From a virus (taxonomy: Duplodnaviria; Heunggongvirae; Uroviricota; Caudoviricetes), in the IMG/VR virus record IMGVR_UViG_2579778622_000004: DNA of 39,867 bases. The stretch is one strand, 5' to 3'. The notes under the pieces are model-generated. The model searched no databases, had not been told where the DNA came from, and saw only the letters and a program-made list of their open reading frames with translations. Shown one piece after another: positions 5,975-9,597 of this stretch (positions are counted from its first letter, which is position 1; each line of letters starts with the position of its first letter). A program made the translations under genes and the position numbers.

Positions 5975-6676
5975 TTATTCTGATTCTCGCTCAAAAAACG
6001 AGCTAATAAGGGGAAGCCAATCCTCTGACACTTCGCGAGGTCGCGGTTTGCCGTGGAAAAAGATTATTCGGCAGTCCTTTGGTAATGCCCCATTCCCCCT
6101 GGAGTAACGCGCGCTCGCATATTTTGAACCAGGTTCCACAACATCGGCCTTGTAACTTACAAACCATCCTGGATACAGATCCTGAAATGCTGGTGTATCA
6201 TCGCCCATAACCTTCCGTAAGAACCCCTGATCACCCCAGCACTCAGTAGTGACACAACGAGAAATCCAACCTTCCGGATCTTGCCAGAATGAACTCCAGA
6301 TATGCGCTTTAACACTATTTGGTATCCACAAGGCACCGCTGCCACGATATTGTGGATGGTAAAAATCCCTAAGCATGGTGAAGCTGGTTGGTGGATGCTC
6401 TAGGATTGGGCGTATATCACCGGCAATAACCGTGTCCAAATCCAGATAGAACAGATCATCGGTTATATCCGGTCGGAACAACTCGATTTTCGCCCACCAG
6501 CCACGGCACTTTTGCCACTGGTTGATCAATGGGACAACTTTGACGCCAGGTACATGTAAACGCTTCAGGTCTGTCAGGCAAATAATTTCATAGCCTTTTG
6601 GCAGTTGATTAACCAGCCACTGCACATCGGAAGCGTTATAGTCACCACCAGAGCGAAAAACTAAAGCAATCTTCAT
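5975..6676 (-). CDS. Putative GT-A-fold glycosyltransferase (DXD-type)
   Basis: 233 aa; [14 protein letters not shown]-terminus, LDLD acidic motif, GWWAKIELF; assignment by pattern only. Confidence 0.4.
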
Positions 6677-7365
6677 GCTGCACCATCACCTTTCACTTTC
6701 ATCAATGTCAGGTTTCCGCAAAATACGGCACCAGTGTCGATATACTGCTGATTCCAGAATGTCTTCGGGCTTTTCACCGGAGTGTGACCAAAGATAAAAC
6801 GATCTGCGCCCGAAATTTCGCCACCAATATCATCCATCGAATCACTGATACGCTCGCGCGCCCAGACAACGTTGAAAAGCGGCACCTCCTTACCGAATTG
6901 GTATTCATTATCCGGATAGTCGGCATGGGCTATAACGATAGTTTCTTGCCCGGTGTTCAACTCAATGATATAGGGCAGACGCTTTACCAGCTCCACCAGC
7001 GCCCAGGCTAATATTTCCTGATCAGTGTCCAGCATGAAGAACCATTGTCCGCCATTCATTAGCCAGTTATTCACGTTGCCATCTGGACTTAACGCATCAA
7101 TCATCAGCCGCTCATGGTTCCCCATCACTGCCCTGAACCAGGGCATCTGCAATAGTTCCAGACATTCGACATTTTCAGTACCGCGATCGATAAGGTCGCC
7201 GACCGATATCAGTAAATCCTGCGCCGGGTCAAAATCCACACGATGGAGTTCGGACATCAGTCTGGTGTAGCAACCATGCAGATCACCAACAACCCAGACA
7301 TTCCTGTATTTGGTACCGTCGATACGGTGATAAATTGTGGGTGCCATCATGTATTCTTCAGCCAT
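6673..7365 (-). CDS. Ser/Thr protein phosphatase, lambda-PPase/PrpA-type metallophosphoesterase
   Basis: GDLHG, GDLIDRG, GNHE motifs in canonical order; ATGA overlap with downstream gene. Confidence 0.85.
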
Positions 7366-7973
7366 TCTTTAAGAGTCATCTGCGGAATACCTCCCATTTT
7401 CCCGCATGAAACAACGTCAATCCGTTCACGCGCAGACTGGAATAACAAAGGCAGGTGACTTAGATTTTTTGGCGTGCCGCCGGAGTGAACGCGTGGTTCT
7501 TGTGTAGCGTCAACGCCCACCAGGGCGACATGTTTGAATCCGATATGGAAAGCCAGGTTCAGAGCACCATATGCACTATTGCCGCTGGCAATTTCATTCT
7601 CATCTTCGCAAAGTCCGAAATGTGCGGACCAGCGCCACGCCCACCACTCGGGAGAATTCGTATTTTTTGGCTCCATGCCACGTTCAGCCACACGACGGAA
7701 GCACAGAACGCCGTCTCTGACTTCACGTTCTTTAACATCGGGTAGTGCCATGCAATAACAAACACCACGGCGACGGCGGCCACGACCAACGCGCCGCATA
7801 TTGTCTGGCGATGGATCAAGTGTGAAAAAATAAGAAGCGCGGTACAGCCAGTCGATGGCCCCATTGACCGCTATAATCGGCACTCCGCGCGGCGCAACAA
7901 AGTTTGCGGCGCTTGGGCCACTGCCGACGATAATAACGCGATCACTGCCTCTAAATTTATTCTTGGGAAACAT
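7347..7973 (-). CDS. GT42 (CstII)-like / DUF115-like nucleotide-sugar transferase-fold protein, paralogue A
   Basis: [13 protein letters not shown]...IIAVNGAI and [24 protein letters not shown] resemble CstII-type N-terminal Rossmann motif. Confidence 0.45.
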
Positions 7974-8533
7974 TGAATTGCACTGCTCCTACTTGCATTC
8001 AAAATATGTAAATCTGCGTGTTTTTTGCGGGTATCCAGGAACTGCTGTTGCCATTTTGAAATAGACACCTGCGTTGGATTCCGTAGGGCTTGAGGGTGCG
8101 CGCCATGCCAATGAAGGCCGTTTTGCAGAGAACAGTCATAGCCGACTAATACCACTACTTCAGCCCCTGATTCAGCAGCCAGACTGATAGCCTGCGCGCC
8201 GCTATTTACCCCTTCCGCCGGTCCACAATATCGCCTGTACTCCAACGAAAATGATTTCGCCGCCGCCAGGTTGGCTGTCACTTTGCGGAATCTCCCTCCC
8301 GGTATGGTGGATCCGTATTGCTTCCACCATGACAAATCACCGGCGTATAAGGCATAAATGTCATCGAACATCTGCCAGGAATTGTTAACCGCGATGATTG
8401 AACAGCCAGTTTTTTCTATAGCAGCACAGTCCTCACGAGTGAGTGACGGACCGCTACCGACACAAAAAACAGTCCTAGTCGCCCTGGGTGGTATGTTCAT
8501 TCTCAGCTGCAAATTCAGCCTCCAGGCGAGCAT
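7871..8533 (-). CDS. GT42 (CstII)-like / DUF115-like nucleotide-sugar transferase-fold protein, paralogue B
   Basis: VFCVGSGPSLTRED...IIAVNNS and NSGAQAISLAAESGAEVVVLVGYD; paralogous to 7347..7973. Confidence 0.45.
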   Translation of the reverse strand: MLAWRLNLQLRMNIPPRATRTVFCVGSGPSLTREDCAAIEKTGCSIIAVNNSWQMFDDIYALYAGDLSWWKQYGSTIPGGRFRKVTANLAAAKSFSLEYRRYCGPAEGVNSGAQAISLAAESGAEVVVLVGYDCSLQNGLHWHGAHPQALRNPTQVSISKWQQQFLDTRKKHADLHILNASRSSAIQCFPRINLEAVIALLSSAVAQAPQTLLRRAECRL

Positions 8534-8696
8534 TCATTTCAGCGATTACAGGGTCCACTACAGCATCTGTTTCCTGTTCATTACGCGGCATGATCGATGC
8601 CAGCGATTCATAATTAGCCTTGGATGACACGACTATTCTCCCGATGTTAATGTGCGCTATATCAAATGGCGCATATGTACTAATTAATTTATTATT

Positions 8697-9275
8697 TTAA
8701 GCAGCATACAACCACTTGTCGCCGTTCAATACATGCTCAATAGCCTCACCCTTTTTAAGGCTTATGTATTCCAGGATGGCGGTTATCGCTTGTTCTGCAC
8801 CATACGCAAGAACGACGTAGTAACCTTCCTCTCTAAGCCTGCGCATCCAGGCGATCTGCTCTTTCGTCGGGGCTTTACCATTTGGTTCTTTAAGCTCAAT
8901 TCGCATGCCGTGATAAATACCGCATGCTTTATCGAGACTCATGTCCGGATAACCTTTTTTCTGCCCTTCAGCCTTCATTTTCCCGGCGGTTGCTTTTGAA
9001 CGTTTCCCTCCGTTAGGCGTTGCATGCAACAGCTCATAGATGTCAGGGTGCTTGCGTTCGAAGTAATCAAAAATGAAAACCTGCTCGAAGTGCTCGCAAT
9101 TTCCGTCGCGCAGGTCTGGGTTCTTTGCAAGTGCTGCAAGTGCCTTCGCATGTGGAGAAACTTCTTTTACCGGCGCAAGCGATAAGAATGGATCCTTTTT
9201 GGTTTTTGGCCCGGGCCGCCCCTTATTTCGACGCTCACTAAAAGCCTGAAACTCTTCCTCAGTAAAGCGCAACAC
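8697..9275 (-). CDS. VRR-NUC domain nuclease-like protein
   Basis: GYPDMSL...RIELKEPNGKAPTKEQIAWMRRLREEGYYVVLAYG matches VRR-NUC (PD-(D/E)xK) pattern; GTG start. Confidence 0.55.
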   Translation of the reverse strand: MLRFTEEEFQAFSERRNKGRPGPKTKKDPFLSLAPVKEVSPHAKALAALAKNPDLRDGNCEHFEQVFIFDYFERKHPDIYELLHATPNGGKRSKATAGKMKAEGQKKGYPDMSLDKACGIYHGMRIELKEPNGKAPTKEQIAWMRRLREEGYYVVLAYGAEQAITAILEYISLKKGEAIEHVLNGDKWLYAA

Positions 9276-9277
9276 AA

Positions 9278-9523
9278 TCAGTCAAATCCTGCCGGTCGCA
9301 TGCCATATTTACGCTGTTTTGCGGCCTGCTCTTCCCTGTGCCATTGCGCACACTCAGCGTCACAATAAATGCCTGATTCAATCGATTCATTGCAGTAACG
9401 ACACTTCCCTGTAAATACCTGGCTCACGACCTGTGCCTGCTTTCTGATGTTATCGATGGCCATGTCTTTGAGAGCTTCTAACTGATTCATGCTCAGCTCT
9501 GCATCATCAACACGTTCTGCCAA
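9278..9523 (-). CDS. TraR/DksA-type C4 zinc-finger protein
   Basis: CRYCNESIE...YCDAECAQ four-Cys motif; TTG start with GAGGAA RBS. Confidence 0.5.
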   Translation of the reverse strand: MAERVDDAELSMNQLEALKDMAIDNIRKQAQVVSQVFTGKCRYCNESIESGIYCDAECAQWHREEQAAKQRKYGMRPAGFD

Positions 9524-9580
9524 TTTTGTTTCCTCATGAAGAACCTACTTAAGGGCAGAATGATACATTTCACAACCAAA

Positions 9581-9597
9581 ATTGCACTAATAATTTT
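9581..9597 (+). promoter_or_regulatory. C1-type operator (15/17) in divergent promoter region
   Basis: ATTGCACTAATAATTTT about 60 nt upstream of minus-strand TraR-like start. Confidence 0.45.

Follow-up and report, generated by a model that had tools for sequence, protein, structure and literature searches.

Some bacteriophages glycosylate their own particles: Freeman and colleagues are reported to have found in 2023 that mycobacteriophage glycosyltransferases, encoded within the cluster of structural genes or beside it and dispensable for plaques, decorate capsid or tail via host nucleotide sugars. These enzymes are ordinary GT-A/GT2-type transferases and are not known to include a Maf/MptE-like pair with a GT8-like partner. 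Bacteria, for their part, may encode a dedicated cytoplasmic glycosyltransferase beside the adhesin that it modifies, as in HMW1C and in the heptosylation of AIDA-I and TibA by Aah and TibC, and Maf enzymes are nonulosonic-acid O-glycosyltransferases of flagellin. Here we consider positions 5975–9597 of the Caudoviricetes virus record IMGVR_UViG_2579778622_000004, whose whole analysed stretch of 39,867 nucleotides (nt) is called the window below. Read on the minus strand from the C1 operator Op82, they carry the P1 block pmgL–pmgM–pmgN–pmgO–pmgP–ppp–pmgQ. The genes pmgO, pmgP and pmgQ of this block recur together far beyond P1, and on balance we read this trio as a protein glycosylation set, one that probably acts on the virion.

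Between positions 5900 and 9700 the window aligns along 100% of its length with P1, P7, RCS47 and SJ46 at 98.2–99.0% identity; its source is a P1-like phage or phage-plasmid. All seven open reading frames (ORFs) are intact and equal in length to those of P1 (AF234172, the reference record; window coordinates equal coordinates of locus L001 plus 2899), and gene order and operators are identical. Known for many years, the locus is already annotated, and pmgL–pmgQ have gone without an assigned function since the 2004 annotation. In P1 the block is merely given a 'putative morphogenetic function', in P7 its genes are upf81.0, upf81.2, hdmA–hdmC, ppp and hdmD with the product note 'head morphogenesis', and RefSeq automated names in the block include 'glycosyltransferase', 'alpha-2,3-sialyltransferase' and 'norphogenetic protein'. 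None of these labels names a mechanism or a target or defines a module. The searchable literature returned no functional study of pmgO, pmgP or pmgQ (or of P7 hdmB/C/D), no recognition of their products as a conserved, fusion-linked set, no mention of the placement of the trio in head-gene clusters or in an adhesin island, and no report of virion glycosylation for P1 or for any other phage with a Gram-negative host.

What the P1 set has in common with mycobacteriophage virion glycosylation is the position of homologous transferase genes in the structural cluster and their dispensability for plaque formation; the mycobacteriophage hosts are Actinobacteria, whereas the P1 set belongs to Gram-negative hosts and is known here from its genes. 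Compared with Maf (PDB 5mu5, 632 residues, with flanking domains such as tetratricopeptide repeats), PmgO and PmgP are bare catalytic domains of ~190–210 aa, a divergent pair always coupled to a GT8-like enzyme, with 16% identity to 5mu5 and scores below the Pfam MptE-like threshold. PmgQ (233 aa) is smaller than the GT8 enzymes glycogenin, LgtC, Skp1 alpha-galactosyltransferase and Streptococcus pneumoniae GlyE, shares 13–17% identity with them and has no Glyco_transf_8 match. Finally, a chromosomal island of Pseudescherichia resembles the AIDA-I/Aah and TibA/TibC loci in that homologues of PmgO, PmgP and PmgQ stand among an inverse autotransporter and Big_1 proteins. This likeness is one of gene layout: Aah/TibC and HMW1C use GT9-like heptosyltransferases or GT41 enzymes, whereas the island has Maf-like and GT8-like ones.

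Three transferase-fold genes that travel together

The genomic context of the trio was surveyed in about two dozen loci, using longest-ORF gene calls where a locus was unannotated. Scanning IMG/VR with the PmgP alignment returned near-identical P1-like contigs only, and the diverse loci came from a scan of GTDB genomes. PmgQ is encoded no more than 4.5 kb from PmgP in 20 of 22 loci, the two exceptions being contigs of 1.4 and 3.1 kb, and PmgO is present in 15 of the 22. The hosts span Enterobacteriaceae, Pseudomonas, Zhongshania, Methylophilaceae, Commensalibacter, Brevundimonas, Ochrobactrum, Sinomicrobium (Bacteroidota) and Longimicrobiales. Only pmgO, pmgP and pmgQ travel together, and this trio is the functional unit in the block. 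PmgP and PmgQ are its constant core; they are often accompanied by PmgO, by FkbM or S-adenosylmethionine (SAM) methyltransferases and by a fourth, Nucleotid_trans-like transferase.

Natural fusions join the same proteins in several combinations: PmgO-PmgP (P0092), PmgP-PmgQ (P0221, P0291), PmgQ-PmgP (P0312) and a triple PmgQ-PmgP-SAM-methyltransferase (P0270). BFVD holds further large uncultured-phage proteins in which a PmgQ-like fold is joined to an 'MptE-like' annotation. Fusions of this type are a classical sign that the joined proteins work in a shared pathway or complex. In one metagenomic phage pmgO and pmgP are joined into a gene for a 376-aa protein (Table 1).

In a Pseudomonas prophage the gene order is terminase, portal, ClpP protease, HK97-type capsid, PmgO-PmgP-PmgQ, a fourth glycosyltransferase-like gene and connector genes, and in Zhongshania it is TerL, portal, S78 protease, capsid, a 94-aa ORF, PmgO, PmgP, a methyltransferase, PmgQ and a gp6-type connector. 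Ochrobactrum has capsid, connector, PmgP, PmgQ and a head-closure protein; in Brevundimonas the set has a Mu-F-like head gene on one side and the tape measure gene on the other, and in a metagenomic phage it lies between Mtd-like genes and a head-closure gene. Phages D3 and PAJU2 carry a PmgO-like gene beside capsid or adaptor genes, with a 275-aa protein and a methyltransferase a few genes on. The transferase genes are thus inside the virion structural cluster in the homologous sets of Pseudomonas, Zhongshania, Ochrobactrum, Brevundimonas and D3/PAJU2. Elsewhere the set is found between the lysis cassette and terminase (a Citrobacter phiNP-like prophage, locus L004), after the lysis cassette on the plus strand with the terminase ~7 kb off on the opposite strand (metagenomic phage L003), or before a lysozyme gene (a Buttiauxella prophage). 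In P1 it lies directly upstream of pmgR and pmgS, the latter matching a PHROG labelled 'PmgS-like head morphogenesis'.

The Pseudescherichia island is not a phage. Its genes run in the order helix-turn-helix regulator, Big_1 protein, 690-aa protein, PmgO-like, inverse autotransporter, PmgP-like, PmgQ-like, Big_1/RCC1-repeat protein and Big_1 protein, flanked by the housekeeping genes for MatE, MscS and AMP nucleosidase. The inverse autotransporter (1166 aa) has an IAT_beta domain and seven Big_1 domains, and three further proteins are of the Big_1 Ig-like kind. Transferases interleaved with adhesins in this way point to a protein acceptor.

The island could also be taken to mean that the trio glycosylates a non-virion protein of host or phage (an adhesin, flagellin or an envelope protein) while the phage grows lytically, for host takeover or superinfection control. 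The chromosomal copy sits among inverse-autotransporter and Big_1 adhesins with no virion genes, Maf, the closest structural relative, acts on flagellin, and the P1 set does not adjoin the capsid gene. We nevertheless judge this improbable, since at least six unrelated phage architectures place the set inside the head or head-tail joining cluster, and late, C1-repressed expression would leave little time to remodel the host surface. Returning to glycosylation of the particle, a virion protein specifically as the target seems to us plausible, if somewhat short of probable, and the likeliest acceptor in phages would be a head or head-completion protein.

Several observations accompany these loci. 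The head-tail region of D3 and PAJU2 carries a variant cassette that lacks PmgP and PmgQ and consists of the PmgO-like gene together with genes for the 275-aa protein and for a SAM methyltransferase; D3 orf7 is annotated in RefSeq without its N-terminal GSGPS part, and the PmgO homologues of PAJU2 (ORF010) and Klebsiella phage Eowyn are both annotated as 'structural protein'. The 275-aa D3 orf12 looked GT9-like by eye; it has no Pfam match and the assignment was dropped. Beside capsid gene and cassette, Pseudomonas phages encode a conserved protein of ~95 aa, half of it low-complexity and rich in Ser, Thr, Pro and Gln, with no Pfam match, which might decorate the particle and itself be a substrate of glycosylation. 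Elements of Bacteroidota and Gemmatimonadota combine PmgP/PmgQ with FkbM methyltransferases, including one 535-aa double methyltransferase, and the Sinomicrobium PmgP/PmgQ set is followed by ribonucleotide reductase genes. The gene context in E. coli phage EP_H11 was uninformative, all genes there being annotated as hypothetical.

Folds, predicted reactions and acceptor of the trio

PmgO and PmgP are homologous to each other. Family against family, with the PmgO-PmgP fusion left out, hhalign matches them at 98% (E 2e-13, 164 columns), and pairwise BLAST finds just the shared GSGPS…IAVN motif. Their fold matches Maf, MptE and CstI/CstII, by structure prediction for PmgO and, for PmgP, through its homology to PmgO. 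Adding the fusion and both families to one MAFFT alignment stacked PmgO homologues on the PmgP-like domain, and hence PmgO was modelled alone. Both proteins correspond to the central domain only and lack the flanking acceptor-recognition domains found in the 632-residue Maf chain. The single Pfam family to match is MptE-like (PF01973), at 23.4 bits for PmgO and 21.1 for PmgP, below the gathering threshold of 34.6; several homologues of the pair carry a precomputed PF01973 match. In PDB searches the PmgP profile found nothing, and the PmgO profile gave only insignificant matches to CstII motifs (GxGPS, SG…G(I/Y)D). The PmgP family is of moderate size and counts 571 clusters at E ≤ 1e-3 and 244 at E ≤ 1e-10 among 1.84 billion representatives.

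Invariant positions follow a common plan: GSGPS, D66, NSG (S111), GYDCS (D133) and HWHG in PmgO; SGPS, D53, GNSA (S133), GVD (D155) and H173 in the PmgP family alignment. As the Maf catalytic residues we considered an acidic residue, the conserved Ser and the Asp, as well as E324 and D415 in 5mu5. Ser and Asp are separated by 22 residues in both PmgO (S111/D133) and PmgP (S133/D155), close to the 23 between S334 and D357 of CbMaf, an equivalence drawn from spacing; these two CbMaf residues are essential (bioRxiv 10.1101/2020.06.03.131540). The pmgO and pmgP genes overlap in different frames, and the overlapped tail of PmgO (residues after ~203) is unconserved in its homologues, the N-terminus of PmgP being the conserved one.

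With matches to the MptE and thiamine pyrophosphokinase folds, and 'MptE-like' as the sole Pfam family found, PmgO and PmgP might not be glycosyltransferases at all. They would then be pyrophosphokinases that activate a small molecule or sugar and leave the transfer to PmgQ, or would have their place in some other pathway, metabolic or anti-defence. We consider this very unlikely: matches to Maf and sialyltransferases are better, the CstII motifs are recovered, albeit weakly, the acid…Ser…Asp pattern is kept at nearly the CbMaf spacing, and the set is constantly coupled with sugar-type methyltransferases and a GT-A enzyme.

PmgQ has a GT-A (Rossmann-like alpha/beta/alpha) fold that superposes on GT8 enzymes, the top structural matches being protein-acting or soluble members of that family. 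Its invariant motifs are D79-L-D81 (DxD), GDQ, SYK and H208-G-x-P-R-P, and in 26 homologues D79, L80, D81, T82, H208, G209, P211 and P213 do not vary. The DxD aligns with that of GT8 in a HMMER alignment with 6mw5, and the His motif is equated by sequence pattern. No Pfam or NCBIfam family is found at E ≤ 0.1, so that PmgQ is a distant GT8 relative and not a listed family member, and its own family is narrow (41 clusters by word-indexed search). The original prediction, made from the letters of the window, had seen in these three ORFs two paralogous GT42/DUF115-like transferases and a DXD-type GT-A-like protein, and profile and structure comparison bear out all three as glycosyltransferase-fold proteins. 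It had also offered glycosylation of nucleic acid or of protein; the protein version is the reading best supported by the comparative evidence, that is, the linkage of the trio and its positions in head clusters and beside adhesins, while the activity itself, the donor sugars, the protein (virion) acceptor and the benefit are what we infer.

In the mechanism that we propose, PmgO and PmgP would be stripped-down Maf/MptE-fold catalytic domains that move a cytidine monophosphate (CMP)-activated ulosonic acid onto Ser/Thr. They would probably do so as a heteromer, because neither has the acceptor-binding domains of Maf and the two are found fused elsewhere. PmgQ is predicted to add an alpha-linked hexose from a uridine diphosphate (UDP)-sugar, either extending the glycan or initiating it, and in other phages the methyltransferases would cap it. 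In E. coli the donor for PmgO/PmgP might be CMP-activated 3-deoxy-D-manno-octulosonate (CMP-Kdo), which is to our knowledge the only CMP-activated ulosonic donor of strain K-12. In E. coli, Maf enzymes can take Kdo from the CMP-Kdo of the host and attach it to Ser/Thr (bioRxiv 10.1101/2020.06.03.131540). Kdo as the donor sugar of the trio is a tentative suggestion, to which faint similarities to the Kdo transferase WaaZ also point, though these fail the membership test: of 28 PmgP family members 8 show weak WaaZ_KDO_III matches (best E 0.012), and PF27901 (WaaZ_KDO_III) matches the PmgO-PmgP fusion faintly. Membership of PmgP in WaaZ (TIGR04437/PF27901) was rejected at 12.2 bits against a cut-off of 200, and hhalign against E. 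coli K-12 WaaZ gives probabilities of 32% for PmgP and 38% for PmgO, with shared superfamily motifs only.

The same matches could be read differently: PmgP and PmgO would transfer Kdo in the manner of WaaZ, PmgQ would be a GT8 core hexosyltransferase of the WaaO/WaaJ type, and together they would modify lipopolysaccharide (LPS) or another surface glycan. WaaO and WaaJ, which act on the LPS core in E. coli, do belong to GT8, and P1 adsorbs to the LPS core; modification would mask this receptor and so limit superinfection or the loss of progeny on debris. Several facts make this quite improbable, as we see it. The WaaZ scores are as low as just given, and the structures nearest to PmgQ act on proteins or are soluble. 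The set is repressed in the lysogen, and expression late in infection, just before lysis, would hardly allow newly made LPS to get to the outer membrane. It also occurs in Bacteroidota and Gemmatimonadota, which have different envelopes, and in head-gene clusters, and the adhesin island fits an LPS target poorly.

Published P1 genetics bears on the benefit of the set. In-frame deletions of pmgL, pmgM, pmgN, pmgO, pmgP, pmgQ and ppp were made in P1CMclr100, and among 29 knockouts only pmgA, pmgB and pmgC, together with pmgG and pmgR, proved essential, the non-essential ones leaving plaquing and anti-restriction activity unchanged; loss of pmgR left heads and tails unjoined (PMC9024508). A genome-wide CRISPR interference (CRISPRi) screen likewise found pmgL, pmgM, pmgO, pmgP, ppp and pmgQ non-essential (PMC10695390). 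The exception is pmgN, scored essential by CRISPRi at an efficiency of plating of 1.4e-2 (a ~70-fold drop), in contradiction to its viable deletion (PMC10695390, PMC9024508). A simple polar effect does not explain this score, as knock-down of pmgO–pmgQ has no effect and the pmgN deletion is viable. The benefit of protein glycosylation by the trio might then be environmental, such as a shield from antibodies or proteases, or adhesion. A glycan coat of this kind would be dispensable on laboratory lawns, which agrees with the absence of any plaque phenotype. Natural glycosylation of the capsid is reported to weaken antibody recognition (PMC12691614). The main text of the P1 virion proteome paper never mentions PmgO, PmgP or PmgQ, which are evidently not reported virion components, and this fits enzymes and not structural parts.

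Some findings weigh against protein glycosylation of the virion. The P1 set lies between tail/baseplate genes and pmgR and not beside the capsid gene, and some loci put it beside lysis genes or ribonucleotide reductase instead of head genes. Single deletions, giving no plaque phenotype, provide no functional read-out. The GT8 family has LPS-core members, and these add to the faint WaaZ matches of PmgP. In the text of the P1 virion liquid chromatography–tandem mass spectrometry study the string 'glycos' does not occur.

The P1 block: neighbouring genes, operators and transcription units

Table 1. Features of the pmgL–pmgQ block in the window and of related loci elsewhere. Positions with a locus number (L) are those of that locus; all others are window positions.
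Feature	Position	Strand	Description
pmgL	9278–9523	-	81 aa, four-cysteine zinc finger; TTG start preceded by GAGGA
pmgM	8697–9275	-	VRR-NUC nuclease, Holliday-junction-resolvase-like
pmgN	8475–8630	-	51-aa acidic protein; 3′ end overlaps pmgO; PHROG 2350
pmgO	7871–8533	-	220 aa; minimal (~190-aa core) predicted transferase of Maf/MptE/sialyltransferase fold
pmgP	7347–7973	-	208 aa; remote PmgO paralogue, most conserved member of the set
pmgO/pmgP overlap	7871–7973	-	103 nt
ppp	6673–7365	-	lambda NinI-type Ser/Thr protein phosphatase
pmgQ	5975–6676	-	233 aa; GT8-like GT-A glycosyltransferase, putative retaining
Late promoter LPpmgL	9612–9630	-	from P1 annotation; -22 element common to divergent LP26
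Sigma-70 promoters P1pmgL, P2pmgL	~9560–9620		from P1 annotation
C1 operator Op82/O26 ATTGCACTAATAATTTT	9581–9597	+	two mismatches to C1 consensus; annotated in P1 and P7
Sigma-70-like site	8722–8694		from promoter scan
Degenerate C1 operator Op83/Oppp TATGTACTAATTAATTT	8674–8690	+	12/17 consensus matches; P1 and P7 annotation
Inverted C1 operator pair Op86a/Op86b	5908–5973		66-nt element; operator matches, P1 annotation
Op86a	5957–5973	-	three mismatches
Op86b	5908–5924	+	three mismatches
Hairpin and U-run	~5922–5949		11-bp stem, nested between Op86a and Op86b
Other C1 operator matches	3816–3832, 19629–19656, 22916–22932, 38367–38383		19629–19656: overlapping divergent pair including one perfect consensus copy
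pmgO-pmgP fusion, metagenomic phage	L003:10001–11131		376-aa protein
Pseudescherichia chromosomal island	L107:2241–15359 (also L091–L095)		non-phage; trio among adhesins
D3 variant cassette	L109:4337–7789		head-tail region
PAJU2 variant cassette	L110:4474–6417		head-tail region
~95-aa protein	L109:4337–4624 (D3 orf6.5), L005:9843–10124		Pseudomonas phages
Bacteroidota and Gemmatimonadota elements	L103:7646–11095, L104:3467–6956		PmgP/PmgQ with FkbM methyltransferases
D6 ppp	L106:4490–5182		89.7% identity at DNA level

The remaining genes of the block are of other kinds. Ppp is a clear phosphatase of the lambda type (Metallophos 59.3 bits against a cut-off of 21.5, PRK11439 3.3e-81, PHROG 246), with the GDxHG, GDxxDRG and GNHE motifs, the last read as MGNHE in the translation. 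PmgM aligns with the VRR-NUC structure 4qbl (phmmer E 3.6e-17), the residues YPD…RIELK falling on ypD…rIEiK, the PD-(D/E)xK core; Pfam VRR_NUC stays sub-threshold at 21.2 bits, and PHROG 5702 matches at 5e-27. PmgL has four Cys spaced CxxC-x9-CxxxC, presumably shorter than the canonical TraR/DksA spacing. It falls in PHROG 54, 'DksA-like zinc-finger' (1.6e-12), with no Pfam zf-dskA_traR match and no PDB relative. Homologues of PmgN occur in close P1 relatives only.

PmgL, PmgM, PmgN and Ppp are P1-lineage neighbours and not parts of the glycosylation set: their homologues adjoin the trio in P1-like replicons only. Ppp, located between pmgP and pmgQ in the P1 lineage, is absent from every non-P1 trio locus examined. 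The P1 relative D6 shares ppp alone of this region at the DNA level, and there, with the trio absent, it sits among genes like those of a lambdoid nin region, so that ppp behaves as an independently mobile gene.

Seen from P1 alone, where the genes are adjacent and under common C1 control, all seven could form a single DNA-directed module for DNA glycosylation or anti-restriction, the nuclease and zinc finger cooperating with the transferases, and sugar modification of DNA is a known anti-restriction strategy of phages (T4 glucosylation, for example). We give this reading very little credence. PmgL and PmgM never adjoin the trio outside P1-like replicons, and a separate operator and promoter precede pmgN. 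Domain-library scans detect no DNA-binding domain in the trio proteins, whose genes keep company with head genes and not replication genes and are also found in the chromosomal adhesin island. P1 DNA, moreover, is routinely sequenced and mapped with restriction enzymes. Anti-restriction activity was unchanged in the knockouts of all seven genes (PMC9024508).

Screening the window for the 17-bp asymmetric C1 operator returned 8 sites, against 0.24 expected from shuffles. C1 operators overlap promoters here, and the sites at 9581–9597, 5957–5973 and 5908–5924 coincide with Op82, Op86a and Op86b of P1. The regulatory region upstream of pmgL differs from P1 by 3 substitutions over 161 aligned nt. 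Between pmgM and pmgN, overlapping the 3′ end of pmgM, P1 annotation places the promoter PpmgN, near which the sigma-70-like site of our promoter scan also turned up. Owing to this second promoter and its operator Op83, the block is probably two transcription units and not one simple operon, although it would be readable through late in infection: pmgL and pmgM would stand behind Op82 and LPpmgL, and pmgN, pmgO, pmgP, ppp and pmgQ behind Op83/PpmgN. In a lysogen the whole block would stay silent, and its expression would follow the inactivation of C1 and come late in the lytic cycle.

The 66-nt element at the other end closes the block on its 3′ side and serves as control region for pmgR and pmgS. 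A stem of 13 + 11 bp is possible over its length, folding at -26.9 kcal/mol (z = -10.4). As RNA it would terminate pmgQ transcripts, and as DNA it is a divalent operator. A simple terminator scan did not list the nested hairpin, and for that stretch the P1 features mark the promoter PpmgR and no terminator.

Of what the original prediction had said about the block as a whole, most of the individual identifications hold. Its operator at 9581 is a real site that maps exactly onto the P1-annotated Op82/O26, its terminator at 5921 corresponds to a genuine hairpin and T-run (at a spot where P1 annotation has the promoter PpmgR), and repressor control is supported by the operators Op82, Op83 and Op86a/b. 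Packing is as tight as its translational coupling supposed, with a gap of 2 nt between pmgL and pmgM and overlaps of 59 nt (pmgN/pmgO), 103 nt (pmgO/pmgP), 19 nt (pmgP/ppp) and 4 nt (ppp/pmgQ). The VRR-NUC nuclease and the lambda-type phosphatase were correctly named, and the TraR/DksA-like label of PmgL, true to its cysteines and PHROG, is weak on the Pfam side. It overlooked pmgN, Op83/PpmgN and LPpmgL, and of its single operon the minus-strand, C1-controlled block remains. Joining nuclease, zinc finger and phosphatase to the transferases in one module does not survive the comparison with other genomes, and an anti-restriction role runs against both the knockouts and the genomic context. The knockout data speak to plaquing and anti-restriction and do not count against effects on host range or protein modification.

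What the set would mean for P1 and other phages

Putting these elements together, P1 may share with hundreds of further phages and with certain adhesin islands on chromosomes, across Proteobacteria, Bacteroidota and Gemmatimonadota, a self-contained protein O-glycosylation system that has gone unrecognised. A heteromeric pair of minimal Maf-like transferases would put a CMP-ulosonic acid (in E. coli Kdo, which otherwise serves LPS alone) on Ser/Thr of capsid proteins or adhesins and a GT8-like enzyme would add a hexose, sometimes methylated. In this full form the proposal is speculative and, with all its parts, rather unlikely to be right. New in it would be the combination of enzymes and the range of hosts, the process itself (virion or Maf-type glycosylation) being of a known kind. 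Were virion proteins indeed glycosylated, a process so far shown for mycobacteriophages would extend to phages of Gram-negative bacteria.

If the full proposal were true, P1, a classic transducing phage, would be a glycosylated virus and would provide the first natural case of Kdo-protein glycosylation. Already with virion proteins as targets, the trio would represent a new minimal Maf-like/GT8-like enzyme set, useful for instance in cytoplasmic protein glyco-engineering in E. coli. Few phages have been used as much in bacterial genetics as P1, and P1-like phage-plasmids spread resistance genes. For phage therapy the system would be relevant too, as glycan coats may alter antibody recognition and clearance.

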